Source: a virus
Strand: one strand, 5' to 3'
DNA: 64,000 nt
Virus record (IMG/VR): IMGVR_UViG_3300028840_006907
Span: 1 to 64,000 of that record
Within the stretch, counting starts at the first letter, position 1; each line of letters opens with the position of its first letter. The notes below the pieces were generated by a model. That model was not told the DNA's origin. It worked only from the letters and a program-made list of their open reading frames with translations, and ran no database searches. A program made the translations under genes and the position numbers. Shown piece after piece: positions 1,501-53,815 of the stretch.

Positions 1501-2574
1501 TTATTCTTTGTCCTGTTGAATTAATGTATTGTTATATTCAGTATTAAAAATTAGTGTGTTATCAGCATTAGAATTACCTAGTAATATCTCTTTTATTTGA
1601 TCTATTTGTATTTCAATCTCTTGATTTGTTTTTACCGGGCAGTTATGGCTCTTATTATGGTAATTAAAATTGTCTATACCATTTGTTTCTGTATAGGTAA
1701 AATGATTATTGAGTCTTTCTTTTATATACCCGTTCATGAAATCAATATTATTGGTAAGATTATTTTCAATAATTTCTTTAAAATCATTATTATATTCAAT
1801 ACCTATACTATTTCTACCAGATGCCATAGCAGCTAGTGAGGTTGTACCGGTACCGAGAAATGGATCTAATATCACATCTCCTTTCAAGGAATACATATTA
1901 ATTAATCGGTATGGTAATTCAAAAGGAAAGGCAGCACTTCGCTCAATATTTTTATGATTAAGTTTTTGCTTTGTACCTTTAAAACTCCAAGTATCAGAGA
2001 ACCATTGATTCCTTTCTTCCCAGAAGAAAGCACTTTGTTTTCTTCTAAGTTTATCCTCAGGAGTGAGAAAGGTTCTTTTACCCATTTTTCTAAATATGAG
2101 TATGTATTCATTTTCCAGGGTTACATAAGCCCCTGCGGGAAGCATACCAGAACCCATGAATTTATTCGGGGCATTTGTTGGTTTTCTCCATAGGATTAAT
2201 GGAAGGGGAATAAGTCCTATATCCATACAGAAATCCATAACTCTGGCATGATTTGGGAATAATTGAAAAGTTTTATAAAATGTTCGAACAGCATCTCCGA
2301 TATTGAGGCAAGCAAAGCCACCGGGTTTTAGTACCCGATAACATTCTGACCATACTTTATCTAGCTCTTGATGCATAGCTTCAAAAAGTGCATTTGTTTT
2401 CATTTCTTTATCTGGTTTGATATCCAGAAAATCAAAGAACAGCATATCCCACATTTCTATCATAGGGTATGGAGGAGAAGTAATTATTAAATCAACACTA
2501 TTGCTCTTTAGTGGAAAGTTATCCCTAGAATCCCCAAAACGTATAATATGGTTAGTGATCATTGGTTCAGTCAT
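1501..2574 (-). CDS. DNA methyltransferase, beta-class amino-MTase (likely N4-cytosine or N6-adenine)
   Basis: Motif IV SPPY near N-terminus (LIITSPPYPMIEMWD) and motif I DPFLGTGTT near C-terminus; order IV then I. Confidence 0.8.
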   Translation of the reverse strand: MTEPMITNHIIRFGDSRDNFPLKSNSVDLIITSPPYPMIEMWDMLFFDFLDIKPDKEMKTNALFEAMHQELDKVWSECYRVLKPGGFACLNIGDAVRTFYKTFQLFPNHARVMDFCMDIGLIPLPLILWRKPTNAPNKFMGSGMLPAGAYVTLENEYILIFRKMGKRTFLTPEDKLRRKQSAFFWEERNQWFSDTWSFKGTKQKLNHKNIERSAAFPFELPYRLINMYSLKGDVILDPFLGTGTTSLAAMASGRNSIGIEYNNDFKEIIENNLTNNIDFMNGYIKERLNNHFTYTETNGIDNFNYHNKSHNCPVKTNQEIEIQIDQIKEILLGNSNADNTLIFNTEYNNTLIQQDKE

Positions 2575-5352: not shown

Positions 5353-6360
5353 TTAATCTACCCATTGAATTTTTCTACGGTACTGACCTGTTACTTCATC
5401 TATATCAGAGACATTTCCTGCTTCCTTTACTATTAAATTTAATTTACGTTTTAATTCTAGCTGAAGATCATCACTTTTTATTATTTCGGGAGAAGTATGT
5501 TTCTCCAAAAAATTATTTTTTAAATCAAGCAATTGTTTTTCAATGCTCACATCTCCAACAAAATTGAGTTCTGAAAAATCATCAATAAATTTTTTAAGTG
5601 AATTAATAGTAGGGCCTTTAACAATTTTCCCTGATTTCATATTGGTGGCGATTTTATCACAAAGAGTTACTACTTGTTCACGAAGATTTGTAACAACCTC
5701 ATTGATAAAAGAACCAATCTTTTCTTGGGCCTCTTTCTGATAAACATCGTAGGCAATATTCTCTTTTGCAATTTTATCTTCAGAAACTTTTCTCATTTTC
5801 GGTAGAGCAATTTCAAATATATTCCAGGTTAAAGAGAACCTATTTCTTAATGAAGTTGTGCTTGGATAGTATGATTTTATTCGGTCAAGAAAATTTGTGA
5901 CGAATTCTTCCTCTTCGTTTTCTTTACCTTCAATACTGAATTCATGAACACCTATTTTTGTTTGTCGGTTATAGGCAGCTTTGGCTGCTTCCTCATAAAT
6001 AGGTAGCATCTCTTTTCGTAATTTGTCGTAATCAACAATCAGGTTATCGATTAATTTATTATATGCCTCCTGATATTCCTGAAGAGTTTGCAGTATTTTT
6101 AAAAATTTCTTTTTGGGTACAAACCGTGCTGAACTTATAGGGAATTTAAAACTGTTCGTCTCAACTAGAAACCGAGCTTTACTTTCAATAGATCTGAATT
6201 TATGTATGGTTTCTTTTGGAACGAGCATCTTCTTACCAAGAAGATAAACATTAGATATAGTGTCTTTTTCTAATCCCAAGTCTTGAGCAGTCAGGATTTT
6301 TGCTCCAGTCCAGAACCGCACTTTAATTTCAACTAAAACACCATCTTTAAATATATCCAT
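5353..6360 (-). CDS. DUF3150-like protein (plasmid/phage-associated)
   Basis: N-terminal VLVEIKVRFWTGAKILTAQDLGL pattern recalled as typical of DUF3150; 335 aa. Confidence 0.4.
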   Translation of the reverse strand: MDIFKDGVLVEIKVRFWTGAKILTAQDLGLEKDTISNVYLLGKKMLVPKETIHKFRSIESKARFLVETNSFKFPISSARFVPKKKFLKILQTLQEYQEAYNKLIDNLIVDYDKLRKEMLPIYEEAAKAAYNRQTKIGVHEFSIEGKENEEEEFVTNFLDRIKSYYPSTTSLRNRFSLTWNIFEIALPKMRKVSEDKIAKENIAYDVYQKEAQEKIGSFINEVVTNLREQVVTLCDKIATNMKSGKIVKGPTINSLKKFIDDFSELNFVGDVSIEKQLLDLKNNFLEKHTSPEIIKSDDLQLELKRKLNLIVKEAGNVSDIDEVTGQYRRKIQWVD

Positions 6361-6386
6361 AATTATTTTCCTATCATTAATAAGTG

Positions 6387-6420
6387 CTGTCCCTTTAATG
6401 AAAAAGGGACAGTGTTTTTT
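6387..6420 (+). terminator. hairpin plus T-run oriented for plus-strand transcription
   Basis: ctgtcccttt...aagggacag stem followed by tgtttttt, overlapping stop of 6419-7981 gene. Confidence 0.35.
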
Positions 6421-7981
6421 ATAAGTTTAATTTCCTTTTACCTATTACCTGTTCAGCCTTCATCTCTATTGAAGCTTTTTTCACTCTACGTTTTTCAGAC
6501 CATTCACGGCCTTTCTTAATATCCTCGGCATAAAGCTGTGCTGTAAGTGATACTTCTTTAGCACTTGTAACAAGATCTTCAGTGGAGATTTCCTGATTTT
6601 TGCTGAATGAAAATTTCAGAGTATCATTAATCCAAACTTCAATTTCAGATCCACTAAAATCTTTAGTGGATTTAACTAATTGCTTTATGTCGAAGTTGCT
6701 GGGGTCACGATTTATTTTTCCCAAATGTATTGAGATAATTTTCTCTCGTTCACTATCATAAGGGAAATCAACCCAGAAGATTGCATCCATACGACCACCA
6801 CGAATTAGTTCAGGAGGTAGTTTCGTTGCATCGTTTGAAGTAGCTGCAATGAATACATCAGTTGTTCTTTCAGCCATCCAGGTTAAAAGTGTTGCTAGCA
6901 TTTTTTGAGAAGTCTCATGAACATGCCCACTTTTATTATTAGGAAAAGCTTTTTCGATTTCATCTATTCGTAAGACACAGGGAGCATTTGCATCAACGAT
7001 ACTGAGACATCTTCTTATTTTCTCTTCTGATTCTCCTACAAGACTGCCTAAGAGTGCACCTACATCAAGACTGAATAATGGTCGTTCCCAAACATTGGCG
7101 ATAACTTTTGCAACAAGAGATTTCCCGGTTCCAGGAGGGCCTACGAATAGGGCACCTTTGGGAGGAAGTATTCCATATTCTCTGGCTTTCTCAGTGAAAC
7201 AATTCTTTCTAACCAGGAGCCATTCTTTAAGGTTATCAAGTCCACCAATGTCATCAAGAGTTTCTGTTACACTAATAACATTTAAGAGCCCTGTGTTTTT
7301 AACAACTGTGGCTTTTTCTCTATTAATAACATTAATGTCAAGACATTTTCTTTCAACAATGGAAAGAGAATAAGCATTCTCAGCTTCATCAGATGTCATT
7401 CCTAAGGCTGCTTCAATAAGGGAAGTATCGTTTTTGGGGTACTCTATGGAATCTTCAACTGATCTAGCGTTTTCATAAGCTCGTTGACATACTTTTCTTA
7501 AAGTATTTGTATTTGGAAGTTTAAAATCAATTACAGTTATTTCTTTCTTTAATTCATCTGGTATTGATGAACAGCAAGAAACAACAGCCAAAACTCTACC
7601 GGTAGATCTGCAGATTGGAATTATATTTCGTATTTTTCGTTGAATAAAATCTTTTTTAATATAATGGTGGAAATCTAATAGAAAAAAGATAGAATTCTCT
7701 TCCACCTCTTCTGAACTTATCCAATTAAGAGCCAACATTGGATCATCTGTTTTAGTTTTTATATCTAATTTATTTTCTAAAAGGATATTATTATCATTTA
7801 TTTCTCGGAGTTTGATTCCATCAACTCTGTCCCAAGAATAAAATTTATAATTTCCTTTGTCAAGTTTGTTCATTTCATTTGCTAGGGTTCTTATCGCCCT
7901 ATGTTCTTCATGGGTCTGTATCCACAAAATTGTATAACCGGCACGTATATAATTTGAAAAGATGTGTTCTTTATTTTCCAT
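6419..7981 (-). CDS. AAA+ ATPase with N-terminal domain of unknown function
   Basis: Walker A GPPGTGKS, Walker B VLRIDEIEKA, sensor region TSNDATKLPPELIRGGRMD. Confidence 0.85.
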   Translation of the reverse strand: MENKEHIFSNYIRAGYTILWIQTHEEHRAIRTLANEMNKLDKGNYKFYSWDRVDGIKLREINDNNILLENKLDIKTKTDDPMLALNWISSEEVEENSIFFLLDFHHYIKKDFIQRKIRNIIPICRSTGRVLAVVSCCSSIPDELKKEITVIDFKLPNTNTLRKVCQRAYENARSVEDSIEYPKNDTSLIEAALGMTSDEAENAYSLSIVERKCLDINVINREKATVVKNTGLLNVISVTETLDDIGGLDNLKEWLLVRKNCFTEKAREYGILPPKGALFVGPPGTGKSLVAKVIANVWERPLFSLDVGALLGSLVGESEEKIRRCLSIVDANAPCVLRIDEIEKAFPNNKSGHVHETSQKMLATLLTWMAERTTDVFIAATSNDATKLPPELIRGGRMDAIFWVDFPYDSEREKIISIHLGKINRDPSNFDIKQLVKSTKDFSGSEIEVWINDTLKFSFSKNQEISTEDLVTSAKEVSLTAQLYAEDIKKGREWSEKRRVKKASIEMKAEQVIGKRKLNL

Positions 7982-12355: not shown

Positions 12356-13540
12356 TTATCCTCTTACATAATCAGTTACACAGTTAATTTCATCATCACT
12401 TATCCAGGCACCGTGATATCGTTCAGGTTCAGAAGCACCAGGATAAATCATTAACATATCTCCCTTACCGGCCAGAGCTTCAGCTCCATTGCAATCAAGA
12501 ATAACTCTGGAATCATTTTTGGATGATACTTGGAATGAGATCCTTGAAGGCATATTGGATTTAATAAGACCAGTGATAACTTTAACGATAGGCTTTTGAG
12601 TTGCAAGTACCAGATGGATACCTACTGCTCTGGCTAATTGAGCCAACCGTACGATCATTTTCTCAAGTTCTTTACCTGAAGTCATCATAAGATCAGCCAT
12701 CTCATCAACCACAGTTACTATATAAGGAAGTTTTGTATCGGAATTTTTATTAAAACTTTCGATATTTCTTACTCGATAATCAGCTAAGAGTTTATATCTA
12801 CGATCCATTTCTTCAATTAAATCTGAGAACACATGCACCGCTTCTGAGGGCTCGGTAACCACAGGGCATCTCAGGTGGGATAAATTATTATATGACGCCA
12901 TTTCCACTCTCTTGGGATCGACAAGGACAAGCTGGCATTCATCTGGTGTTCGAGTAAATAATATTGAAAGAAGAATACTATTTATACATACAGATTTACC
13001 TGATCCAGTTTGACCTGCGATTAAAAGATGAGGCATAGTAGTCAAATCGATTATTTTTGGATTACCAATAGTATCGGTTCCAAGTACGATGGGAATCTTG
13101 GTATTGGAATCAGTGGTAAAGATATCACGGAAACCGATAATGGATCTTGTTTCATTCATCATTTCTATTCCAACACAAGCTGTACCTGGAATGGGTGCTT
13201 GGATTCTGATATTGGATGACATTAAAGCCATTGCGATATCTTCAGTGATCTTTTTAATCTGAGCAATCCTTACACCTTTTGATAATTTCAGTTCATATCG
13301 GGTAACCACTGGGCCATGTTTAATATCCTGGACAGCAGTATCGAATCCAAGTTCAGCGATCCTGTTTTCAAGATCATGAGAGCTTAAACTGTTGGGTATT
13401 CTATTGGATGAATACTCGTTTAAGAGTCCTAAATGAGGTTTTCTATATCTTTTGTTTTTCTTCTTTTTACATGCATCTTCCTCGGAATTAAGGAGTTGCA
13501 TTACATTTAAGAGCTTTCTGAATTTTGTTGATTTGTTCAT
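12356..13540 (-). CDS. FtsK/SpoIIIE-family DNA translocase motor (alpha/beta domains only)
   Basis: GPVVTRYEL, APIPGT..VGIE, Walker A GQTGSGKS, Walker B VVDEMADLMM; no N-terminal TM or gamma domain. Confidence 0.8.
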   Translation of the reverse strand: MNKSTKFRKLLNVMQLLNSEEDACKKKKNKRYRKPHLGLLNEYSSNRIPNSLSSHDLENRIAELGFDTAVQDIKHGPVVTRYELKLSKGVRIAQIKKITEDIAMALMSSNIRIQAPIPGTACVGIEMMNETRSIIGFRDIFTTDSNTKIPIVLGTDTIGNPKIIDLTTMPHLLIAGQTGSGKSVCINSILLSILFTRTPDECQLVLVDPKRVEMASYNNLSHLRCPVVTEPSEAVHVFSDLIEEMDRRYKLLADYRVRNIESFNKNSDTKLPYIVTVVDEMADLMMTSGKELEKMIVRLAQLARAVGIHLVLATQKPIVKVITGLIKSNMPSRISFQVSSKNDSRVILDCNGAEALAGKGDMLMIYPGASEPERYHGAWISDDEINCVTDYVRG

Positions 13541-15269: not shown

Positions 15270-17330
15270 TTATTCCACAGTGCGAACAAGTAAATATTTA
15301 GCTCCATTATATGTTGGAAAGTATGAATAATAATTTCCTCTATTGAAGAAACTTTCGGTCATAGTAAATTTTACCATTGGATCAATTACTGATGGACCAG
15401 TATAATCAGTTTGTGATTCACCTGGAATCGCATTTTCATATTTATCATTCAATCTGATCTCTCCCAGGACCACTACACCATTATTAAATGCGTAATGGAA
15501 TTCAGCTTCAGTAGAAATTCGGAATCCATTCTTGGTCAGATCCATTTGAATATCCAAACTATCAGTATAAGTATAAGCTGTATCCAATCCAGCACCTTTT
15601 GATTTCTCGTTACAGTATTTTATTGCTTCAAAGTAATTACCTAAACTGTAGGTAGTAGTATCAAACCAGAAATCATAACTGAAACTGACATCGATAGGAG
15701 GTAAAGGAAACCAATGATATTGGTATACATTATTCTGTAATTTACCGAACATGGTAGATTGATTTTTCGATTTTATCTTATACTCACCATTAAATAGGAA
15801 AAGAACTTTAAGTGTAACAGTATCCAAAGCAGTATTACCATCATCATCGGTAACCCGAAGGACACATTCAATAACAGAATCTGAGTTCATTGGAATAACA
15901 TATTCATATTTACTGGTATCTGTAGCAGATTCATCTGTAACAAATGTTCCGGTATTCCCAATGTCCCATTCCCATTTTACAATGTGACCATAGCCATCTG
16001 TGGCAGTACCATGAAGAATAACTGTATCTCCTACAACAATCATAGAGTCACTGTTATTAACGAGGAAAGAAGGTCTGCACTGTCCTTCAACAAAGGTACT
16101 CGCTATAGGCTCATCTTTGACCACTGTAACAGTTATTTGATCTGAAGATGTGTTACCATCATTATCAGTAACTCGAACCACATAGACCATATCACCATTT
16201 CTTTGTCCGGTGACATCGGGAACAATCACTGAGGTGTCACCTGTGCTTGTTTCTTTAAATCCTTCACCATTAATATCCAGTTCCCATTTTGAGATTCCTC
16301 TGCTACCGATAGGGTCAGTGGCAATACAGGTAATATGGATTGTATCATAGATACTAACAGTAGTATCATTTCCTATAATCTGTACTTCTGGTTTTGCATT
16401 TTCTGCACTAAAGGGAGGAATTTCAATATCACCAGCTATACTATTGAAAAGAATATTTGGACTTTGACCGATAAGTTTATCTTGGTTATTAAATACATCC
16501 ACATACACATTATATTTATTTGTACCTACAGAATAAATGAAGTAAACGAAACCACTATAGGTATTACTGGAAGTATTATGCCAGAGTTCAGCGGTCTTGG
16601 TACCATTGATATCATCACCAGTAATATTGGCTTGGATAAGGCTGATTGTATCAGGGAAAAACATAGGTAAGTATAAGTTTCCATAGATATCTCTCTGTAT
16701 GACAAACAGATCCGGTAGGGTATCAATCCATTCACTGATATTGGTAGTAGAGAGTACTTGGTTATCTTTAATCAGATTTAGAGTATCATTAATATCATCT
16801 TGTGATAATCTAGCAAAGACACCACCACTGATTGTGGCATTGTCCCCGATCCGGGTTAAACTTGGTTTACCTCTATCATAGAGACTTGGTGATTTAAAGT
16901 TATGTACTTTATTGCCAATCTTTAATTGAACGATATACATTTGTGCTGATAAACCAGTGGCAGGATTAATTGAATAGTTACCAGGATCAAGTTTTCGGTT
17001 TAAAGCAGTGAAGACATTTTGACCACTCAGATTATATACCTTAATAGAAACCTGAGTTTTCTTAAGAACCGGGAACCAGAGTCGAGAGTTATCATATTTA
17101 ATTGTATTAAGGGATACTGAAGATTGGTTTTTAATATCATTGGAAAGTTTTGATAAGATATAGATACCATCAGCACCGGTAGTATCAGAAATACCTTGTC
17201 CTTTTAATGTCGCAATAACGCCAAACATCGGACTGTTATTGTTGTCCAGAACCTTACCTGTAATATATAAGTCCTGGGCATTAACTGTAATTAATAAAAA
17301 TAAAACGATAAGAATAAAAGATTTGTACAT
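15270..17330 (-). CDS. secreted multi-domain protein with CarboxypepD_reg-like and PKD-like repeats
   Basis: Signal peptide MYKSFILIVLFLLITVNA; GKVLDNNNSPMFGVIATLKGQGISDTTGADGIYIL; two VRVTD(N/D)DGNT PKD-like units. Confidence 0.7.
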   Translation of the reverse strand: MYKSFILIVLFLLITVNAQDLYITGKVLDNNNSPMFGVIATLKGQGISDTTGADGIYILSKLSNDIKNQSSVSLNTIKYDNSRLWFPVLKKTQVSIKVYNLSGQNVFTALNRKLDPGNYSINPATGLSAQMYIVQLKIGNKVHNFKSPSLYDRGKPSLTRIGDNATISGGVFARLSQDDINDTLNLIKDNQVLSTTNISEWIDTLPDLFVIQRDIYGNLYLPMFFPDTISLIQANITGDDINGTKTAELWHNTSSNTYSGFVYFIYSVGTNKYNVYVDVFNNQDKLIGQSPNILFNSIAGDIEIPPFSAENAKPEVQIIGNDTTVSIYDTIHITCIATDPIGSRGISKWELDINGEGFKETSTGDTSVIVPDVTGQRNGDMVYVVRVTDNDGNTSSDQITVTVVKDEPIASTFVEGQCRPSFLVNNSDSMIVVGDTVILHGTATDGYGHIVKWEWDIGNTGTFVTDESATDTSKYEYVIPMNSDSVIECVLRVTDDDGNTALDTVTLKVLFLFNGEYKIKSKNQSTMFGKLQNNVYQYHWFPLPPIDVSFSYDFWFDTTTYSLGNYFEAIKYCNEKSKGAGLDTAYTYTDSLDIQMDLTKNGFRISTEAEFHYAFNNGVVVLGEIRLNDKYENAIPGESQTDYTGPSVIDPMVKFTMTESFFNRGNYYSYFPTYNGAKYLLVRTVE

Positions 17331-18195: not shown

Positions 18196-18519
18196 TTATT
18201 GAATTAATTTTGTAGCCATCTCATAATAGATTTTGTCCATTTTAGGACATTGTCTTTCCATTTTCTTTAACCAGTCAATAACTGAATCGCTCTCTTCAAT
18301 TGGTGGTACAGTTTCAATAATTTTAAAAAACTTTTTGAAAATTCCAGTACCACATGTCTCATAGTAACCACTATTACCATAATCAGGATAAACTTGGTAA
18401 TATGGTCTACCATTTTTATCTTTCTCTTTATATTCACAGAAATAATGTTCTCCTAAAGAATAACCTTCCAATCCATTCCTGGCCATAGGAGCTTCGATAC
18501 ATAGACATAATTGAAACAT
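18196..18519 (-). CDS. hypothetical protein
   Basis: 107-aa ORF downstream of NAD-binding gene. Confidence 0.45.
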   Translation of the reverse strand: MFQLCLCIEAPMARNGLEGYSLGEHYFCEYKEKDKNGRPYYQVYPDYGNSGYYETCGTGIFKKFFKIIETVPPIEESDSVIDWLKKMERQCPKMDKIYYEMATKLIQ

Positions 18520-18539
18520 CTATTACCATCCTTTCATTT

Positions 18540-19607
18540 TTATGGTTTAAATTCTTTATCTATGGCATATTTAATCAATCCAGAGAAATGTTCCAAAACA
18601 TCTGGATATTGAATTGAATTAAATATTTCATGGGATAAATTAGAATTATATTTTTGATTATCTACAGTAATATAAGGAGCGAAAGTTTTACCTACAGTTC
18701 TGTAATATAATTTTTCAAATTTATTTAAATTATTTGGAAATTTATCAACAAATTCAAATTCCTTTACATTTAGCATATTTAAAATAACGGAAAAGTATTC
18801 TTTATGTAATGGAGGATTTGGGTTTATTATATTAAGTTCTGTAAAATCTTCATTGATAGATTTACATATGATTTTAGCAACATAATCTACAGGAACAATA
18901 TTAAGAGTTTCATTTAAATTAATGTGGATTCTAATTGGCATATCCATTTTATATCTATAAAAAAAGTATGCCCAACCATAGAATACATCAAATTTTAAAG
19001 TAATATATAAAGGGAAATCAATTAAACGACCACAGATAACTGAAGGTCGTAATATCTGATAATGAATATTATATTTTTTACAATAACTTGATATATATGT
19101 TTCCATAGTTGATTTAGTTTCTTCATAGGGATTTCTATAAATATTTTTAATTCTATTTACAAATGCTGTACTTATATAAATAAATTTATAAAGTTTTTTA
19201 CTATCGATATTATTTATCAAATTTATAGTTCCCAAATTATTATTTAATAAAAGTTCTTGTTCTGTAGCTTTATCTGTCATTAAATTTGTTGAAGCGGCAC
19301 AATGTATTACTGTCAATTTCTTAGTATCAATATTAGAAATTATATGAAATAATTCTTTACAATTTAAATGACATGGGATAATTTGAAACCTTTCTTTAAG
19401 TATATTTATTGAATATTTCTTTATGAATTCTGGAATATTTTCTGGAGCAAAAATATTTATGCCTCTTTCTATAGGAGTCATATTATTAAAAGGTCTAATT
19501 AATAAAAAAAGTTTAGATGATGAATTATATCTAATAATTTTTTCAAGCAATTCAAAAAAGATATGACTACCTAATAGACCTGTAACGCCTGTAATTAAAT
19601 AATCCAT
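18540..19607 (-). CDS. NAD(P)-binding epimerase/thioester-reductase-like protein
   Basis: N-terminal ITGVTGLLGSH Rossmann motif, YISTAFV, YEETK (YxxxK). Confidence 0.55.
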   Translation of the reverse strand: MDYLITGVTGLLGSHIFFELLEKIIRYNSSSKLFLLIRPFNNMTPIERGINIFAPENIPEFIKKYSINILKERFQIIPCHLNCKELFHIISNIDTKKLTVIHCAASTNLMTDKATEQELLLNNNLGTINLINNIDSKKLYKFIYISTAFVNRIKNIYRNPYEETKSTMETYISSYCKKYNIHYQILRPSVICGRLIDFPLYITLKFDVFYGWAYFFYRYKMDMPIRIHINLNETLNIVPVDYVAKIICKSINEDFTELNIINPNPPLHKEYFSVILNMLNVKEFEFVDKFPNNLNKFEKLYYRTVGKTFAPYITVDNQKYNSNLSHEIFNSIQYPDVLEHFSGLIKYAIDKEFKP

Positions 19608-19651
19608 ATTGAATCCTTTTTAATGGTTATGTGCGATATTGATTTTTTTAT

Positions 19652-19999
19652 TTACGATTTTTCCATTTCTTTTTTCCAAGTATATGTGATATATGAATAA
19701 TCAATATCTTTAAGTAATTTGATTTTCTCTACAGCATTTTCAATATCTGGAATTGATCCTGTTATAAAAAATCTTTTTATTGAAATATTTTCCTCATCAC
19801 AATATCCTGGATTAGAAAAGATAAGGGATAATTTCTCGGTTTTAATTTCTGGTTCTTCTGAAGAATCTTTATTTATTGTATTAAAAATTTCTTCCTCAGA
19901 TAATGAGTTATTTTCGGATAATTCTGATTTTATAAATTGAATAAAACTCTCTGTATTTACATCAAATAATTTGAACATACATTCAGGTAAATTAGGCAA
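19652..19999 (-). CDS. hypothetical protein
   Basis: 115-aa ORF. Confidence 0.45.
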   Translation of the reverse strand: MPNLPECMFKLFDVNTESFIQFIKSELSENNSLSEEEIFNTINKDSSEEPEIKTEKLSLIFSNPGYCDEENISIKRFFITGSIPDIENAVEKIKLLKDIDYSYITYTWKKEMEKS

Positions 20000-20018
20000 A
20001 ATTTTTATCCTTTATTGA

Positions 20019-20222
20019 TTAATCTTCTACAGTGACAGTGGCTTCAGCTCCGCAGGTACAGCATGTCCAAGTGTTATCTGGATTAGGGAATGCAACGGTC
20101 TCAACTGATTCATCGACAACTTCAAGAAAATTACCTGTTTCATCTACTTTCCAGTCCTGGGAGACATGGGCAACAGTTTCAAATGTTTTATGATCCGGGT
20201 TATTGGGACATATAGCTTTCAT
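20019..20222 (-). CDS. hypothetical protein
   Basis: Start moved to internal ATG abutting upstream stop. Confidence 0.4.
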   Translation of the reverse strand: MKAICPNNPDHKTFETVAHVSQDWKVDETGNFLEVVDESVETVAFPNPDNTWTCCTCGAEATVTVED

Positions 20223-20223
20223 A

Positions 20224-20526
20224 TTAAAAATCCTCTCCGAAAATGTATTTGTGATCCCAAGTACTAAGAACGATACCTTTATAATGTGTTTCTTTTTTCT
20301 TGTAATCAACAAAATATTTTTCAATTAAATGTTTATCTGTAAAGTAAAATACTTGTTTAAAATTTTCAGATGCAATGGCAATCAATTGACCAATCTTATT
20401 GAAAACAAGAAGATCATTCTCGTTAAGTGGAAAGAGAATGATCTCATCGTAATCATTTAAACATTGCATATTCCGTACACCTGCTTTGCGTTCAGGAAAT
20501 ATTATTTCAGTTATTTTCTTTGTCAT
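20224..20526 (-). CDS. hypothetical protein
   Basis: 100-aa ORF. Confidence 0.45.
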   Translation of the reverse strand: MTKKITEIIFPERKAGVRNMQCLNDYDEIILFPLNENDLLVFNKIGQLIAIASENFKQVFYFTDKHLIEKYFVDYKKKETHYKGIVLSTWDHKYIFGEDF

Positions 20527-20973: not shown

Positions 20974-21882
20974 TCAATACTTCGACTGATTACATCCATG
21001 ATTAAATTTGTATTCATTTAATTCATCATTGGACATATGTCCATGTTTCTTGATCGTTTCTTCTAAAATCTGAGGTAATAACTTTTCACCCCAAACTCCC
21101 ATGTTCGGGACAATCTCTCCTCTTGAATTTTTGGATTTGGTAGGGTCTCCTTCAAGAGCATTGGCTCTGATTTTATTTCGTTCCAGTAGCTCCCATTCCT
21201 CATAGTCCTCACGATAAAATCTGTACAACCATAAAAGTTCGATCTCACTCATGAAAGGACATAATAAACAGTTCGATGGATAAGGCACATGCAAGCCCGT
21301 AGAGGCCATGTAATCCTGGCAATCCTTTCTATCCATTCCCATCTCTATGAGTGGATAGATAACCTCTATGGCTTTCTCCTGCCATTTTGGGCGCTCACCC
21401 TTGTTAACACGTTTTTCTTCTCCTTTGGCAATACCGATAAGCATATTGATTTTATCATATGTTTCAGCAAATTGTTTCAATCCTTTCTTTCTTCCTGATT
21501 TAAATCCATATTCTTTTTGAATCCAGTATTCGAGATATTTATATATAGGTCTCAATTTAAGTCTTTCGGTACAAGTTTTGGGAAAACATTTGCTTCCAAT
21601 TCTATTTTTTGTTTTATAGAAAAATCTTAATGTTTGCCAGTCGGGAGAGTGGAATCCCATGTCGTTTGTAAGATGAACAAATTCTACTACATTTTGAGAA
21701 CAGAATTCCTTTATAAATTGTATATGTTTATAGGTATGGGGATGCTCATCACCAGTATCGGCCATGATCACCAAAAGCCGTCCTGGTGCATATTTTTTTC
21801 TGAAATTGTTATCGAGGGCGTACTTGTAAAGTAAAGTGGTGCTGTCTTGTCCGCCCCCGTAACTTAAGACCGTAAGTTCCAT
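20974..21882 (-). CDS. PAPS-reductase/ATP-sulfurylase-like (adenine-nucleotide alpha-hydrolase) protein
   Basis: N-terminal LSYGGGQDSTTLL PP-loop variant of SGGxDS. Confidence 0.65.
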   Translation of the reverse strand: MELTVLSYGGGQDSTTLLYKYALDNNFRKKYAPGRLLVIMADTGDEHPHTYKHIQFIKEFCSQNVVEFVHLTNDMGFHSPDWQTLRFFYKTKNRIGSKCFPKTCTERLKLRPIYKYLEYWIQKEYGFKSGRKKGLKQFAETYDKINMLIGIAKGEEKRVNKGERPKWQEKAIEVIYPLIEMGMDRKDCQDYMASTGLHVPYPSNCLLCPFMSEIELLWLYRFYREDYEEWELLERNKIRANALEGDPTKSKNSRGEIVPNMGVWGEKLLPQILEETIKKHGHMSNDELNEYKFNHGCNQSKY

Positions 21883-22707
21883 CTATTTATTTTTCTCCTG
21901 GTTTGAAGTATCTTTTTTATAAAGGATAAGATCCTTTATTTCATGAGGATTATAATAGAATTGTGTACTCGGATTTTCTTGAGCCATTGAAGTAATTGTT
22001 TTCAGTAATTCTTTTATTAATTGATTTTCTATAGTTTTATATTTTTGAGATGGTAATGGCTCTCCTTTCTTTATAAATAAATTTCTTCCTTTGCATAGTA
22101 AAAGTACTCTACCTCTATTAATCAAATAAGAAGCTTTTTGTTTTGTTATCCCAACGGATTTAGCCCATTCATCAATAGACTGATAACCTGATGGTGGTTT
22201 AATATCTTTCAGTTTTGGTTGAAGAAGAGAAAGGTTTGAAAAGAATTGTTTATCTTTATGTCTATTTATTCGATTACCTTTACAATGTCTACAAGGTTTT
22301 TTACATAAACCTATAAAATGTATTCGTAGATTTCCACAATTTTTACAAAATCCAAGTCTAGGTTTATTTAAAAATAATGTTTTTAGACGCTCGGGATTAT
22401 GATAAATCTGTCTATATTCTTTTCTCTCATTAATTGTTTTGTCTTTGTCATAAGGTCTTGTAGGGATACCTGTATAATATAAATCTATAGCCTCTTTATT
22501 ATATTCTAAAAAAGATACCCAGGCTTTTTCAACTAATAATTCTGGGTCTTTTTTAGCAAGACTTACATGTATATCTTCAAAAAATATGTTATAATTTGAG
22601 AGTGTTTTAAATCCTTCATAAAGCTGTTCCATATCCCATACATGAAAGATATACCTATTAGCATGAAAGCAATTGAAGGCATCTAAAATTTCATCATAAT
22701 CCATCAT
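21883..22707 (-). CDS. zinc-finger protein with HTH-like segment
   Basis: CKNCGN...CKKPCRHCKG cluster; abuts PAPS-reductase-like gene. Confidence 0.5.
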   Translation of the reverse strand: MMDYDEILDAFNCFHANRYIFHVWDMEQLYEGFKTLSNYNIFFEDIHVSLAKKDPELLVEKAWVSFLEYNKEAIDLYYTGIPTRPYDKDKTINERKEYRQIYHNPERLKTLFLNKPRLGFCKNCGNLRIHFIGLCKKPCRHCKGNRINRHKDKQFFSNLSLLQPKLKDIKPPSGYQSIDEWAKSVGITKQKASYLINRGRVLLLCKGRNLFIKKGEPLPSQKYKTIENQLIKELLKTITSMAQENPSTQFYYNPHEIKDLILYKKDTSNQEKNK

Positions 22708-23279
22708 TTCTCCAATTGTACCAAAATTCTCACCAAGTCACTTTTAGTGAAAGTGACATTACCTACTATAAGTTTTCCCCTTTTTATTTGATAAGGGAGA
22801 GAAATATCTGCTGATTCTTTTTGTGAAGTTTCAATAGCTTTGGTAGTTTTAAGGGATTCAATATAAGCTCTTTGTTCTGATCGATTACGAATATGGTCAG
22901 AAGCAAAAACTTGTTTTACTTGATCTGGTTGAAGATTATGTATACTTACTTTCAACACATCATTATTTGGTAATAAAACATCTAGAGGTTCTTCTACATA
23001 TTTAGATTGTTCTGCAAAAGAACATTTTCCAAGTTTCTTTGCCCCTGTTGTAAGATTAGTGAGGAGTTTTACATGAAGAGAACCTCTTCCTACAGATTCA
23101 AACCTGCGCCATGCAGTAGAGGAAATATCAGGATAGGCTTCTTGAAAATCGTATATTGCATCTGGATTGTCATCTATTGTTTTAACATATAGCTTACATG
23201 CTTTTAAAAGATATCCAATACCTTTTGTAAATAACTCTCCAAATTTATTAATTGCTGTTTCTTGAATATTATTTTTCAT
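22704..23279 (-). CDS. hypothetical protein
   Basis: 191-aa ORF, 4-nt overlap with downstream gene. Confidence 0.5.
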   Translation of the reverse strand: MKNNIQETAINKFGELFTKGIGYLLKACKLYVKTIDDNPDAIYDFQEAYPDISSTAWRRFESVGRGSLHVKLLTNLTTGAKKLGKCSFAEQSKYVEEPLDVLLPNNDVLKVSIHNLQPDQVKQVFASDHIRNRSEQRAYIESLKTTKAIETSQKESADISLPYQIKRGKLIVGNVTFTKSDLVRILVQLEK

Positions 23280-23499
23280 TTATTGTACCTTCTAAAGAAA
23301 TATGTGAATTGAATCCTTTAGAGAAATATTGTGCTGGGTTAAATTTAAAAATTGCTATTCCTCCTATTGCCACAAGAAAAATAAAGAGAATGATTCTCCC
23401 GATCTTTCTTGGCAATTCTTTTCTTCGACGTTTAGCCATAAAATCTTTTTCATTTATTTTCATTATTATCCTCATTATTATCCTCATTATTATCCTCAT
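23269..23499 (-). CDS. small membrane protein with N-terminal (MRII)n repeat
   Basis: 12-nt tandem repeat encodes MRIIMRIIMRIIM; then basic stretch and TM helix; start set to first ATG. Confidence 0.35.
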   Translation of the reverse strand: MRIIMRIIMRIIMKINEKDFMAKRRRKELPRKIGRIILFIFLVAIGGIAIFKFNPAQYFSKGFNSHISLEGTINEK

Positions 23500-23508
23500 T
23501 ATTATTAA
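23461..23508. repeat. 12-bp tandem repeat, about 4 copies
   Basis: cattattatcct x3 plus one degenerate copy. Confidence 0.9.
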
Positions 23509-23708
23509 TCGCACTTTACATGGTAATTTAAGAATGATGCTTCATCCCATTTTTTTCCATTGTCTAATACAACTATATCACCTTCCCGTTCAATGACGGG
23601 AGGTTCAATAGCAACGACAACAACAATATCATTGTCTAATGTGCTTCGATATTTTATTCCAATTTCAATCATATCCTTCCTCCTGGTTAAATGGCATACT
23701 CCATCCAT
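23505..23708 (-). CDS. hypothetical protein
   Basis: 67-aa ORF. Confidence 0.35.
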   Translation of the reverse strand: MDGVCHLTRRKDMIEIGIKYRSTLDNDIVVVVAIEPPVIEREGDIVVLDNGKKWDEASFLNYHVKCD

Positions 23709-23887
23709 TTTAATTGTGCCCTTTCCATAAAGGAAAATTTATTATCGATCATCCAGGTTTCTAATTCATTTTTATTCTTGAAGTATCCGGCTTTTACTTT
23801 CCTGGTTAATAAGAGCATCAATTTAAATTTATTCATAGCTTCTGTTTCCATTATATCTTGGTTCTTTAATCTCAGGTATTGAGGCAT
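23687..23887 (-). CDS. hypothetical protein
   Basis: Start set to ATG at 23885-23887, preceded by AGGAGGA. Confidence 0.4.
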   Translation of the reverse strand: MPQYLRLKNQDIMETEAMNKFKLMLLLTRKVKAGYFKNKNELETWMIDNKFSFMERAQLKWMEYAI

Positions 23888-23903
23888 TATATCCTCCTTA
23901 ATT

Positions 23904-23918
23904 ATTATAAGAGATCTC
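23904..23918 (-). promoter_or_regulatory. GAGATCTC palindrome fused to TATAAT box
   Basis: Minus strand reads GAGATCTCTTATAAT, then AGGAGGA and ATG. Confidence 0.4.
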
Positions 23919-24247
23919 AGATAAAGATTCAATATGAATCTTTTAGAATACATTTAATTATATGATTTTTACATACATACGAAAGGCGTAATGGCAAATG
24001 CTATAAGAAAAATAGCAAGAAGAATGAGGCAGATATCGGGTGATTTCATAACATTTTACTCCTTTAAAAGATAGAACTTTGAATTTTTTGGGGTTTCATT
24101 ATCAAAGAAAGCTATTGCTATAATATCTCCTTTGACAAAGAATTGAGTTGCATTCCTAATATTATTAATATTGAATGTCTTATCTTTCATAAATTCTTGA
24201 AATTCAATCTCGGTCACAAGGGAAAGCTCATTCATATCTAATACCTT

Positions 24248-46877: not shown

Positions 46878-48008
46878 TTAACCAACAAGATCTAAGATCT
46901 TATCAAGGGTTTCATTCTTTTCTTTCATTTGAACTGTAGGATTAGGATTATGTGAAGTCTCTTCAGGAGATTCAATTAATTCCAATACAGTTTCGAGAGC
47001 ATTGGATTTTAATTGAGCACCACTACCTACCCACGCACTATCGGCACGGGCTTGTTCTTGAGTAGTATATCCAGACGTAGATGTTACTCTACTAGGTCTT
47101 TTATGATCCACGTAATTAGTAACAGCATTCACCAAAGCCATACCCGTTCCAGCTTGTTCCGGGATAGCATTATCATCATTATCATTAAATAGTTTAGCTA
47201 TCTCAAGGGCTTTATCAGATTTCTTATCTGATTGTTCCCATTTCTCACCAAAGATACGAGTCATAGTCTGTGCAAAAAGTTCTTTGGTAACTTTATGAGT
47301 AATAATCTTTTCAAACTTTTCTTTAAGAGAATTTATATCCTGTTTTAATCCGGTTTGAATCTCAGTGGTTATTTTATTAAGTTTCTCTTTAGCACCTTTG
47401 GTATGTCTTACTTTAATCATTGCATCCTTAGTGCCTTTAGATAAGGCAAAATTCAAAGTGTTCTGACATACTACCCGTACATCGGTGAGCATAATTGTAT
47501 TACTCATAGTTCCATCATGAGCACTCATAAACATGATAAATGTTTCGTGTTTATCATTTCCGATGGAAGCGTTAAAGGGGACACGGGCCAAAGCCCAGAC
47601 ACGTTCTCCACGTCCTAAAACTCCGGCAGCTTCATAATGTGCACCATCAATCTGTTCTAAGACATTATCAATCCATCCACCGATTTCAATATTTTGCGTA
47701 GGTTCATAGGTATTACCTACGATACCAAGGGCGCTTTCCTTACCAGTTAAATCGGAACGAAAGATACCAAATTGATTCGGGAAAACATATCCTTTAGGTA
47801 CAGTGCTTCCAGGTTTCCATAAAGGATTCTTAAAGAATAACGGCCTTTTTTCGACCGTCCAATCTAATTGAGCCAGTTCATAAGCTTCTTTCCAGGTCAT
47901 TGCATGATTGACCATTTGTCCTAGTTCATGCCACGGTAAACCATGTTCATCTATGGCATATGCAGCCGATACTAAACCGTTTTTTGCTGTAAATAAATTA
48001 TGAGCCAT
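46878..48008 (-). CDS. DUF932-like phage/plasmid protein
   Basis: N-terminal AYAIDEHGLPWHELG...MTWKEAYELAQLDWTVEKRPL pattern recalled as typical of DUF932. Confidence 0.5.
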   Translation of the reverse strand: MAHNLFTAKNGLVSAAYAIDEHGLPWHELGQMVNHAMTWKEAYELAQLDWTVEKRPLFFKNPLWKPGSTVPKGYVFPNQFGIFRSDLTGKESALGIVGNTYEPTQNIEIGGWIDNVLEQIDGAHYEAAGVLGRGERVWALARVPFNASIGNDKHETFIMFMSAHDGTMSNTIMLTDVRVVCQNTLNFALSKGTKDAMIKVRHTKGAKEKLNKITTEIQTGLKQDINSLKEKFEKIITHKVTKELFAQTMTRIFGEKWEQSDKKSDKALEIAKLFNDNDDNAIPEQAGTGMALVNAVTNYVDHKRPSRVTSTSGYTTQEQARADSAWVGSGAQLKSNALETVLELIESPEETSHNPNPTVQMKEKNETLDKILDLVG

Positions 48009-50908: not shown

Positions 50909-51517
50909 TTAGTTATAGCGAGTTATTCCGTCACTGGATTCAAAATCCATTGCGAGTATGGTATATAATTCCGTTTCCTGTGTATTAATTGTGTCTGGAT
51001 TGACTTGTCTGGAATATCCATCACTGCTTTCAAAATCCATTGCGAGTGAAGCAAATTCATTTGATATGGTTACAAGCGAGTTAACTGGTTGAATTTCAAC
51101 GATTTCAGTCTGGGTTTGGACTTCTTTAATACATTCATCCATTAAACTATTTAGAGTATCTAAGTCGGTAGTTTTTACGAAGGTTTCCCAGTCCTCTTTG
51201 GACATATTAAAATATTCTCGTACGACTTCGAGTTTATCTATATCTGTTATAGTTTTTACTTTGTTCCCGTTTTGCCAAATACTTTTAGCTTTATTAGTAT
51301 ATATAATCTCGCCTGTAAAGTTATGGTTGAAATTTAACCAGCGAGTCTCGTTATTTACTGACGGGTCAATGACTTCAGCGAGTTTATTACCAAAACGGTT
51401 TATACGATAACGGCCAGTACATTGAACGTTTATCCATTCACGAATTGTTTTTCTTGCGGTTTGGTTTGTGCCATTAATAACAGCACCAATTAATTTATCG
51501 TTCATTAGTATAGACAT
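50909..51517 (-). CDS. hypothetical protein with duplicated C-terminal LAMDFESSDG motif
   Basis: First gene of the leftward array next to the control hub; about 35-nt DNA direct repeat inside its 3' end. Confidence 0.5.
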   Translation of the reverse strand: MSILMNDKLIGAVINGTNQTARKTIREWINVQCTGRYRINRFGNKLAEVIDPSVNNETRWLNFNHNFTGEIIYTNKAKSIWQNGNKVKTITDIDKLEVVREYFNMSKEDWETFVKTTDLDTLNSLMDECIKEVQTQTEIVEIQPVNSLVTISNEFASLAMDFESSDGYSRQVNPDTINTQETELYTILAMDFESSDGITRYN

Positions 51518-51572
51518 AATATTTCCCCTTGTCTAATGTATATATTAACAGTCAATTATTTTTTTCTGTTGT

Positions 51573-51940
51573 CATGAATAATGAAAAAAGTTTAGTAACT
51601 TTCCGAAGTTTTAAGAAACTTTTTCTTTGACGTTTGTTTTTTGTGGCTTTCATGAGTAATGAAAAAAGTTTAGTAACTTTCCGAAGTTTTAAAAATTTTT
51701 TCTTTCATGTAAACTTTTCCTTGTCTACATGAGTAATGAAAAAAGTTTAGTAACTTTCCGAAGTTTTAAAAATTTTTTCTTTCATGTAAACTTTTCCTTG
51801 TCTACATGAGTAATGAAATTAGTTTGGTAACTTTCCGAAGTTTTAAAAATTTTTTCTTTCATGTAAACTTTTCCTTGTCTACATGAGTAATGAAATTAGT
51901 TTGGTAACTTTCCGGAAAAAATTGTAAAAACGCTATTTTC
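51573..51940. repeat. 77-bp tandem direct repeats, about 4.4 copies
   Basis: Units begin at 51573 (degenerate), 51651, 51728, 51805, 51882 (partial). Confidence 0.95.
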
Positions 51941-52312
51941 CTTTATATAGGGGAGAGCCAGAAATCGCCCGTTTGATGTGCGTGATATATACGCCCGAAA
52001 ATGTTCCCGGTTCTAACCCCCCAGTGAAATACCCTTTCCACAAAAGTGAAATACCCCAATACAACTATACCATACCCGACCATACCCCACCCCCGGGACC
52101 TGTCTTCGGGATCATCATCATGCGCTTGCTTTTCGTGCGCTCAATGCCATACCCACCCCCTTTTTGTAAAGATTTTTGGAAGTTGGAAATGGATGGAGTT
52201 AGATTGGATTTTTTGGATGGTAGAAAATTTTGGCTGGTGGGAGAGACCCCACAGTAAAGTACCCGGTTGGTTCAGGGAAGTACCAATATGGTTCAGTGGA
52301 GTGTCTTTTTTG

Positions 52313-52370
52313 TGGCGCATATCCTGTTATAGTGGCGCATATTCTATTATAATGGCGCATATTTCAGTTC
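52313..52370. repeat. three direct GTGGCGCATAT boxes at about 20-bp spacing
   Basis: gtggcgcatatcctgttata / gtggcgcatattctattata / atggcgcatatttcagttca. Confidence 0.9.
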
Positions 52371-52397
52371 AAAGCTCTCAGAACCCAGTTCAAAGAA

Positions 52398-52628
52398 CAG
52401 GGAACAGGGAACTGAGCACAGGGAACTGAGCACAGGGAACCGAGCACAGGGAACCGAGCACAGGGAACTGAGCACAGGGAACTGAGCACAGGGAACTGAG
52501 CACAGGGAACCGAGCACAGGGAACCGAGCACAGGGAACTGAGCACAGGGAACCGAGCACAGGGAACTGAGAACAGGGAACCGAGCACAGGGAACTGAGAA
52601 CAGGGAACTGAGAACAGGGAACCGAGCA
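52398..52628. repeat. 14-bp tandem repeat array, 16 copies, GC-rich
   Basis: CAGGGAAC(T/C)GAGCA with T/C and C/A variants; partial copy then units from 52405. Confidence 0.95.
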
Positions 52629-52872
52629 CCTGTATCTGTGATCTCGGAAAAGTTTCGGGAAAAAAATCGGGAACGGCTCAGGGCTGAGAAATAGGTATGA
52701 ATTTTTTTGGGGTATAATTTTTGGAGTTAAACAGTTGGGGAAATTGGAGTTATCTTATGTGAGGTGATGGGATAGTTTATGGAGGGTGAAAATTTTTTGG
52801 TATAGTTTGATGGAGAAACAGGTATAATACTTATAGGACGGAAAAATTTAAGTCTAATGGTTCGAGGATCTT

Positions 52873-53064
52873 GTGAAGAAGAACACAAAGCGTAAATTAA
52901 ATAAATTGATAGCATTTTGCAAGGATGAGGGGATGGACATAAGTGCGGATGGTGGTTTAATTTATGTCACGGTAGGAAATGGTCGGATGAATGAGGAGGT
53001 TTGGTGTGAGAAGGCTATCAGTGGTTTTTCGGAGGTTGGTGATTTTGGTTTTAACGAGGATTAA
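52873..53064 (+). CDS. hypothetical protein, first gene of rightward array
   Basis: 63-aa ORF; GGTATAAT box about 40 nt upstream. Confidence 0.45.
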   Translation: MKKNTKRKLNKLIAFCKDEGMDISADGGLIYVTVGNGRMNEEVWCEKAISGFSEVGDFGFNED

Positions 53065-53095
53065 AACCTATTAACATTAAACAATTGAGGTAGTT

Positions 53096-53815
53096 ATGAA
53101 CAATAAGATGTATTTAAACAGTTTTATAGATGCATTGAAGGTTTTATCAGTAGGGACTCTTGATAATTATAAGGAGGAGTTTACTGTGGGATTACCTTTG
53201 GACCCGGAGATATTTAAGGAGGTCATACGGAATGGAGTTATGGCTATTCGTGATGGGTCTCATTTTTTTCTTCGTGACATTAAGAAGGTTCGGATTAGGG
53301 ATATGCCGAATGAGTTGCATGAGATTCCAGATCTTTTCACGATATCTTATAAGGCTGATGTTTTTAATGATGAGTTAGTGAAGGAGGATGTTGAGGCTCA
53401 TACTTTGGTGGTTCGTAGATTATCAGATTTGGCATATTCTGTTGTATTGTGGGCATCTCAGGATTTGGAGGTATGGCAACCTATACCTATTTATAATGTT
53501 GTAAATTTTGATGCTGACTTTAATGTTGAAGATGGGGCGTTGCCTTATAGTTATTGGGCGCATGAGTGTTTTTTAAATGGTCAGGGTGATATGATGATTC
53601 GCCAATTACCGTTTGAGAAATTGAATGAAGATCAGGTTGAATATTTAAATCAAACTTATTTATTCCCGATTTTATTTGAGTTATTTCTTGGATTTTGGAA
53701 CAAGTATCCCAGGCTTAGCTTTAAGGATCAGGTTTTACGAAATCGGACGTTGGTACATGATGAGGAGGGTGATGTTTTTTCATTGGATTGGATAAAATAC
53801 AAGGAGATAGTATGA
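53096..53815 (+). CDS. hypothetical protein
   Basis: 239-aa ORF. Confidence 0.55.
   Translation: MNNKMYLNSFIDALKVLSVGTLDNYKEEFTVGLPLDPEIFKEVIRNGVMAIRDGSHFFLRDIKKVRIRDMPNELHEIPDLFTISYKADVFNDELVKEDVEAHTLVVRRLSDLAYSVVLWASQDLEVWQPIPIYNVVNFDADFNVEDGALPYSYWAHECFLNGQGDMMIRQLPFEKLNEDQVEYLNQTYLFPILFELFLGFWNKYPRLSFKDQVLRNRTLVHDEEGDVFSLDWIKYKEIV

Follow-up and report, generated by a model that had tools for sequence, protein, structure and literature searches.

We examined a putative reductase gene on a 64-kb stretch of DNA (positions 1 to 64,000 of IMG/VR virus record IMGVR_UViG_3300028840_006907, hereafter the window), which holds 130 open reading frames (ORFs). The span examined, 18196 to 19999, is filled by three successive minus-strand ORFs, each with an AAGGA or AAAGGA ribosome-binding site (RBS) ahead of it. 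The middle ORF encodes a 355-residue short-chain dehydrogenase/reductase (SDR). A preliminary description of this span, made from the letters alone, had proposed a thioester-reductase-like enzyme from three short motifs, and all three were present in this one ORF. The span it named does contain the reductase gene but is wider, also holding a 115-residue ORF without relatives (ORFan) and a conserved gene of 107 residues. Neither of these two ORFs matched any family in Pfam, NCBIfam or PHROG. The features of the locus were as follows.

19652 to 19999, minus strand: 115-residue ORFan, TTG start, AAAGGA RBS; directly upstream of the SDR gene.
18540 to 19607, minus strand: SDR gene, 355 residues, ATG start, AAGGA RBS 8 nucleotides upstream; a stand-alone extended SDR of the NAD_binding_4 type ("MupV-like").
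18196 to 18519, minus strand: 107-residue conserved gene, function not assigned, 20 nucleotides downstream of the SDR gene; backbone, outside the insertion.
18520 to 20018, no strand: low-GC island of 1.5 kb (ORFan plus SDR gene), an insertion/deletion relative to a syntenic relative.
19563 to 19592, minus strand: codons of TGVTGLLGSH (SDR residues 6 to 15), the NAD(P)-binding Rossmann motif TGxxGxxG; the longer stretch LITGVTGLLGSH covers residues 4 to 15.
19113 to 19172, minus strand: catalytic stretch from Ser146-Thr147-Ala148 to Tyr161-Glu-Glu-Thr-Lys165, with a Ser-to-Tyr spacing of 15 residues.
19164 to 19172, minus strand: Ser146-Thr147-Ala148, within the motif YISTAFV (residues 144 to 150).
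19113 to 19127, minus strand: YEETK (Tyr-x-x-x-Lys, residues 161 to 165).

The protein is an extended SDR of the thioester-reductase/fatty-acyl-reductase (NAD_binding_4) branch, not of the epimerase branch. It has the TGxxGxxG motif, the Ser/Thr and Tyr-x-x-x-Lys residues and a length of about 350 residues with a C-terminal substrate-binding domain, and its residues 2 to 37 were predicted to form a strand-helix-strand unit. In hidden Markov model (HMM) searches, the best Pfam family was NAD_binding_4 (PF07993; E 5.8e-23, 81.8 bits against a cut-off of 20.1), followed by Epimerase (E 8.4e-12, 45.4 bits) and Polysacc_synt_2 (E 2e-5), both above their own cut-offs. NCBIfam gave sub-threshold matches only, with PRK07201 and the thioester-reductase model tied at about 35 bits and galE lower. 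The thioester reductase domain model TIGR01746 scored 35.6 bits against a cut-off of 213.35; PRK07201 (NF005539) scored 35.2 bits against 549 (E 5.8e-9) and aligned over positions 1 to 237 of its 657 only. The window protein is a single domain and differs in this from the two-domain (extended plus classical SDR) architecture of PRK07201.

A single-sequence search of the PDB returned no match. When a profile of 32 relatives was used, a nonribosomal peptide synthetase (NRPS) reductase domain was found at 7e-19, and the first epimerase only at 1.5e-12. The predicted structure had a mean predicted local distance difference test (pLDDT) score of 90.7 and aligned with extended SDR structures over 270 to 338 residues. 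Its best structural matches were true acyl-CoA and thioester reductases, which were closer than the sugar-nucleotide SDRs. Neither a curated equivalog score nor the best structural similarity placed the protein with GalE/RmlB-type sugar 4-epimerases or 4,6-dehydratases. The HMM scores, the family-profile search and the structure comparison thus favoured the reductase branch. The preliminary description had suggested both subfamily assignment by HMM (NAD_binding_4 versus epimerase) and structure prediction as checks, and its thioester-reductase-like assignment was borne out by both at the family level. Its further suggestion of a role on nucleotide sugars or DNA bases gained no support, as sugar enzymes were the weaker structural match and neither a glycosyltransferase nor a base-modifying partner adjoined the gene.

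Conservation was assessed in an alignment of 32 family members, including the window protein. T6, G7, G10, G13, H15, R38, Y161, E162 and K165 were invariant, and S146, T147 and A148 were at least 90% conserved. In the other 31 sequences, 57 columns showed conservation of at least 90%, and the window protein kept the consensus residue at every one of them. No sequence exceeded it in a leave-one-out conservation score, and six other members also reached 100%. Since all of the family-conserved positions are kept, the protein appears intact and is probably active. The concern that the catalytic Tyr and Lys might not be conserved among relatives was dispelled by their invariance.

The one clear deviation from the family lay between the catalytic Ser and Tyr, where 13 to 15 residues are missing from the loop. 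Of the 31 aligned relatives, 28 had a Ser-to-Tyr spacing of 28 to 30 residues and the remaining three had 18, 23 and 29, versus 15 in the window protein. A motif count over 72 genome-encoded homologues gave a similar result, with 20 residues in the corresponding stretch of the window protein versus 30 to 42 in the homologues. The pLDDT fell to 73 at the shortened loop. In extended SDRs, this loop lines the substrate site. The specificity of the window protein may therefore differ from that of the bacterial enzymes, and the deletion probably changes substrate access.

Homology searches recovered 915 relatives of the SDR, with E-values down to 1e-93; these and the Pfam score put the motif matches well outside what chance would give. 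An identical protein is on record from NCBI, JGI and ENA on three contigs, the longest of 469,617 bp; after these identical copies, the nearest relatives were only 42 to 48% identical. Among 1.84 billion representative proteins, 233 clusters were found at E<=1e-10, and 108 clusters at the stricter E<=1e-30; almost all are stand-alone proteins of 370 to 410 residues. The number of clusters at the stricter threshold implies a small family. A total of 392 relatives, at 31 to 45% identity, were confirmed in species-representative bacterial genomes, including Flavobacteriales (Polaribacter, Psychroflexus, Lacinutrix, Aquimarina), Paenibacillus, Verrucomicrobia, Spirochaetes, Brevinematales, Fibrobacter and others. 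In a neighbour-joining tree, the window protein formed a lone branch basal to a subclade of uncultured sequences, among them a protein from a Bacteroidales metagenome-assembled genome (MAG). The closest homologues whose contigs were read (P0009, P0005 and P0002), together with a Polaribacter copy, lay amid ordinary chromosomal genes. The gene was thus acquired from a bacterial chromosome. The preliminary description had asked whether it might be a host housekeeping epimerase carried as a passenger; an acquired bacterial gene within a 1.5-kb insertion is indeed what we found, but its relatives are not a known housekeeping epimerase and are at most 48% identical.

The composition and surroundings of the gene set it apart from the rest of the window. 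Its GC content was 22.8%, with 12% at third codon positions (GC3), versus window means of 33% and 28%, and the 115-residue ORFan had 24.4% GC. A fine GC profile revealed an island of 20 to 25% GC from about 18.5 to 20.0 kb, which coincided with these two genes. No homologue of the ORFan other than itself was found among 5.8 billion proteins, and the 107-residue gene downstream had homologues of 71%, 58% and 54% identity on short contigs, with no SDR gene beside them. One related contig, L089, is syntenic with the window at about 72% nucleotide identity. It carries, in order, the 3' end of a homologue of the gene at 20019 to 20324, the 107-residue homologue, a helix-turn-helix (HTH) gene and the gene of a PKD-domain protein. 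The first two of these are joined by a 118-bp spacer, and the 1.48 kb with the ORFan and the SDR gene is absent. In a second relative, L090, an unrelated gene takes the place of the ORFan and the SDR gene. The reductase relatives are bacterial chromosomal genes, and among related genomes the gene itself is variable. Its absence from the syntenic L089 marks the island as accessory, strain-specific cargo. The SDR gene sits in a variable cargo slot into which it was most likely inserted from a lower-GC source; loss of the island from L089 by deletion is the less likely alternative. A search for flanking repeats at the island junctions found chance-level AT-rich matches only.

Relatives of the gene proved rare in viruses. 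A tblastn search of INPHARED (50,697 phage genomes) gave no match even at E<=5, megablast against the same genomes also gave none, and query-specific and family-wide peptide patterns picked out no relative among 2.9 million IMG/VR contigs. PHROG has no dedicated family; the sole match was the generic "nucleotide-sugar epimerase" phrog_540 (E 4.6e-15), over the N-terminal half. The best viral structures reached a template modeling (TM) score of 0.64 against the SDR model, and plasmids gave three weak matches only. A literature search on phage fatty acyl reductases (FARs), phage thioester reductases and PF07993 in phages returned nothing relevant beyond one domain study of a Marinobacter enzyme (see below). 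No reductase gene of this family is known in catalogued phages from the searches made. The gene had been described as unusual in phage early regions; the rarity stands, and the "early" timing, though plausible, was an assumption.

Gene neighbourhoods were clustered for 78 bacterial loci to look at the setting of the family. Synteny held within genera only, as for GcvT-SDR-YdjM in Polaribacter, except for one link in the Verrucomicrobia. Three loci show it, one in Methylacidiphilum and two in Verrucomicrobiia MAGs: an acyl carrier protein gene (ACP; PP-binding, E 6e-15) lies directly behind that of the homologous SDR and on its strand, and in two of these loci a FabF-like ketoacyl synthase (KAS) comes next after the ACP. 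The loci were:

L018, 2771 to 5655: SDR, ACP and KAS.
L019, 2485 to 5456: SDR, ACP and KAS.
L038, about 830 to 2310: SDR and ACP.

In acpP-fabF operons, fabG usually holds the place that the extended SDR takes here. This gene order offers modest independent support for an acyl-thioester or lipid substrate.

Based on these observations, we read the gene as a functional stand-alone NADPH-dependent carbonyl reductase of the FAR/thioester-reductase branch, of bacterial origin and carried as accessory cargo by a phage-like element of about 470 kb. We put the probability of this reading as a whole at roughly 0.45. The enzyme itself is best read, from sequence and model, as a putative NADPH-dependent acyl-thioester and/or fatty-aldehyde reductase. 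The fold, the family, the intact catalytic and conserved residues, the bacterial origin, the insertion and the rarity in viruses were observed here, and the cofactor, the class of substrate and any part in infection are inferred. By analogy with its enzyme family, NADPH would be held by the N-terminal Rossmann fold through TGxxGxxG and Arg38, and a long-chain acyl thioester (acyl-CoA or acyl-ACP) and/or the derived aldehyde would be seated in the C-terminal substrate domain. Hydride would pass to the carbonyl carbon while Tyr161, Lys165 and Ser146-Thr147 polarise and protonate the oxygen, and a fatty aldehyde or alcohol would result. During infection, this would divert or remodel the acyl pools or envelope lipids of the host. 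Pfam and PHROG scans of the 130 window ORFs, some of them joined into pseudo-proteins, detected neither an ACP nor a phosphopantetheinyl transferase, and no adenylating enzyme, acyl-CoA ligase or lipid gene, nor any PP-binding, AMP-binding, condensation or ketosynthase domain, so any thioester substrate must be supplied by the host. The SDR matched no defence-system model in PADLOC. A more specific scenario, which we consider unlikely, is that a huge phage captured and trimmed a bacterial fatty-acyl reductase that turns host acyl-CoA or acyl-ACP into fatty aldehydes or alcohols during infection, the loop deletion broadening or retargeting access.

Several points weigh against the carbonyl-reductase reading given above. 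The missing carrier and acyl-activating genes are one of them. Across the 78 bacterial loci no neighbour was common to different phyla, the ACP/KAS neighbourhood being confined to one phylum, and members of this exact family are without a tested function. Foldseek did not separate the protein from GalE-type enzymes (TM about 0.65 for both), the TIGR01746 and PRK07201 scores are far under their cut-offs, and the loop deletion could impair or retarget activity. Moreover, the only biochemically tested "MupV-like" extended SDR domain, residues 1 to 380 of maFACR from Marinobacter (MupV_like_SDR_e), is an NADPH-dependent fatty aldehyde reductase with strong activity on decanal and none on acyl-CoA (PMC7573125). 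For this reason, we keep as the main rival an enzyme that reduces only free (fatty) aldehydes to alcohols with NADPH and leaves thioesters untouched, perhaps serving aldehyde detoxification or the completion of a host pathway. NCBI names several homologues "MupV family" SDRs, the N-terminal part of PRK07201 is the joint-best NCBIfam match, and an aldehyde substrate would fit the lack of a carrier protein or activating enzyme nearby. However, the PRK07201 score of 35 bits is equal to that of the thioester-reductase model as well as far below its 549-bit cut-off, the best structural matches are acyl-CoA and thioester reductases, and the verrucomicrobial homologues adjoin an ACP. An aldehyde-only enzyme is in our judgement a doubtful alternative, and both readings would end in fatty alcohols.

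A nucleotide-sugar epimerase, dehydratase or reductase that decorates DNA, capsid or host glycans seems still less probable. It would accord with the two sugar-enzyme families that also passed in Pfam, with phrog_540 as the only PHROG match, with UDP-sugar epimerases as the top Foldseek matches and with the JGI annotation of some homologues as "nucleoside-diphosphate-sugar epimerase"; the stronger NAD_binding_4 score and the profile search of the PDB point to the reductases. Equally improbable to us is a passenger gene without a role for the element, left by a recent chance insertion and now decaying or neutral. Such an origin might be suspected from the compositionally foreign island that is absent from a close relative, from the deletion of 13 to 15 residues beside the active site and from the extreme GC3. 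A decaying gene, however, would hardly be expected to show a full-length intact frame with a proper RBS, a confident structure model and all 57 family-conserved residues despite more than 50% divergence from every relative, and the identical protein came from three contigs in NCBI, JGI and ENA records.

The element of about 470 kb that carries the gene is likely a huge phage. The window is gene-dense, with its 130 ORFs averaging about 490 bp, a coding density of 88% and long same-strand arrays; fewer than 10% of the ORFs have a Pfam domain and only about a dozen match any family. Stop codons are standard (TAA 87, TGA 29, TAG 14), and no tRNA or Rfam family was detected in the window. The family matches comprise an N6/N4 DNA methylase, a DprA-like protein, an AAA ATPase (phrog_8638), DUF3150, FtsK/SpoIIIE, a deoxyribonucleotidase-like domain, a secreted PKD-domain protein, a triple-HTH protein, a PP-loop "PAPS reductase" (phrog_424, SspD-like), GP88, DUF932 and DUF5983. 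Several matches were to phage-only families, namely phrog_8638 (E 1.7e-120), phrog_1221, phrog_6186, phrog_424 and Pfam GP88. Near-identical contigs of 388,651 and 469,021 bp extended the view by 10 kb past each window end and showed more ORFans and an HNH gene. About 9 to 10 kb past the right end, on the 388,651-bp contig (L086, 18853 to 20546), a radical-SAM gene is split by a LAGLIDADG intein; it has QueE-like and anaerobic ribonucleotide reductase activase-like PHROG matches and is preceded by a 1,514-residue ORFan and a family-2 glycosyltransferase.

The HNH gene and the intein-bearing radical-SAM gene speak, like the gene density and the phage-only families, against the view that the element is a megaplasmid or other extrachromosomal element, in which case "phage auxiliary gene" would be the wrong frame. 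That view has its own evidence. No capsid, terminase, tail or portal gene was found in the 64-kb window or the 20 kb of flanks; conjugative elements commonly carry genes such as DUF932, DUF3150, FtsK/SpoIIIE and an orphan methylase; the AAA ATPase (6419 to 7981) is 38% identical to plasmid copies versus about 29% to phage copies; and the contig of the element is not in the IMG/VR collection scanned. We regard a non-phage element as the less likely case, but because virion genes are missing from the window and flanks and plasmid-like genes are present, "phage" is stated as likely only. DUF3150, an IetA-like AAA ATPase, FtsK/SpoIIIE with an SspH-like C-terminus and DUF932 lie among ORFans at 5353 to 7981, 12356 to 13540 and 46878 to 48008, and these plasmid or conjugative-type genes temper the phage reading.

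Some features of the window touch on the host. AGGA occurred within 20 nucleotides upstream of 45% of the 130 ORFs versus 5.6% at random positions. Such strong Shine-Dalgarno usage points to a host with Shine-Dalgarno-led initiation, which is awkward for a Bacteroidota host. Bacteroidota-like features were also seen, namely the many SDR homologues and the PKD/CarboxypepD_reg protein. The latter (15270 to 17330, minus strand) has 686 residues, a signal peptide, an N-terminal CarboxypepD_reg-like domain and PKD repeats, and shares about 67% amino acid identity with its L089 counterpart; a secreted or surface adhesin-like protein of this kind is unusual for the surrounding genes.

Further observations concern DNA metabolism. 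At 20974 to 21882 (minus strand) lies a PP-loop ATPase of the "PAPS reductase" type with the SGGxDS-like motif SYGGGQDST. It matched phrog_424 (E 3e-29) and the PADLOC model of SspD (DndC-like, DNA phosphorothioation; E 2.4e-13) and did not reach the Pfam PAPS_reduct cut-off. It possibly acts in DNA modification and belongs to the backbone, outside the SDR insertion. We considered whether it forms a DNA-base or sugar module with the SDR and rejected this, as four unrelated small genes lie between them, the ATPase is backbone and the SDR an insertion, and the SDR family never co-occurred with such ATPases in its bacterial loci. An orphan N6/N4 DNA methyltransferase at 1501 to 2574 (minus strand; Pfam N6_N4_Mtase E 1e-44, PADLOC type II methyltransferase E 1e-132) probably serves self-protective DNA methylation; no restriction enzyme was detected beside it. 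Short in-frame tandem repeats at 23269 to 23596, MRIIMRIIMRII on the minus strand and IILIIILIII on the plus strand, fall in overlapping small ORFs and represent low-complexity DNA between the genes at 22704 to 23279 and 23687 to 23953. From 51500 to 53100, a mostly non-coding stretch of 1.5 kb carries three tandem arrays:

51573 to 51914: 77 bp x 4.4.
52313 to 52363: 20 bp x 2.5.
52404 to 52629: 14 bp x 16.

The GC skew turns there from negative to strongly positive, and genes run on the minus strand to the left and on the plus strand to the right. This stretch may be an origin of bidirectional replication whose repeats resemble iterons, or else a hub of divergent promoters.

The class of the enzyme is already known, and the novelty lies in its carrier. 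To our knowledge, lipid-related phage cargo is sparse. Should the element prove to be a huge phage with an active enzyme, a reductive step on lipids or aldehydes would join the metabolic functions carried by phages, and a captured phage fatty-acyl reductase, if true, would make this the first auxiliary gene for reductive lipid remodelling to be described in a bacteriophage. Otherwise, the gene adds another case of horizontally acquired cargo at a variable site of a large mobile element, and the view of phage biology is unchanged. In either case, attention is drawn to a small bacterial family without a tested function, for which the phage copy and the verrucomicrobial SDR-ACP-KAS order point to concrete candidate substrates. 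The gene is thus of modest interest, mainly because lipid-type auxiliary genes are rare and because it offers a way into a bacterial family that is uncharacterised.

Comparison with known systems places the window protein among several groups of related enzymes. Phage and giant-virus nucleotide-sugar epimerases and dehydratases (phrog_540; WcaG-like entries in BFVD) resemble the window protein in their extended SDR fold and N-terminal Rossmann half; the C-terminal domain of the window protein is of the reductase type, no viral structure exceeds TM 0.64 and tblastn found no phage relative. The reductase (R) and thioester reductase (TR) domains of NRPSs, polyketide synthases and carboxylic acid reductases (TIGR01746; PDB 6vtj/6vtz, 4u7w, 8v1x, 5msv) differ in setting, as the window protein is neither fused to nor adjoining a carrier or adenylation domain. 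The alcohol-forming FARs (NAD_binding_4, "male sterility"; rice DPW, PDB 7eoz) share only 16% identity with it. Compared with the plant FARs, the window protein is about 100 residues shorter, has a much shorter Ser-to-Tyr loop and is encoded on a phage-like element.

The MupV-like SDRs, including maFACR (Maqu_2507 type, PRK07201), are alike in the N-terminal match, in size (about 380 residues) and in the Ser-Tyr-Lys triad, which was essential in maFACR by mutagenesis (PMC7573125). However, maFACR, compared here by its published description, has a second, classical SDR domain that performs the thioester step; the window protein has no such domain, and its PRK07201 score lies far below the equivalog level. 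Its true family is the uncharacterised bacterial stand-alone "SDR family oxidoreductase" of about 371 residues found in Flavobacteriales, Paenibacillus, Verrucomicrobia and others, with which it shares 33 to 48% identity over the full length and the same conserved positions. The bacterial members are chromosomal and have a Ser-to-Tyr loop of 28 to 30 residues, whereas the window copy resides on a mobile element, is loop-deleted and extremely AT-rich, and forms the lone basal branch of one subclade.

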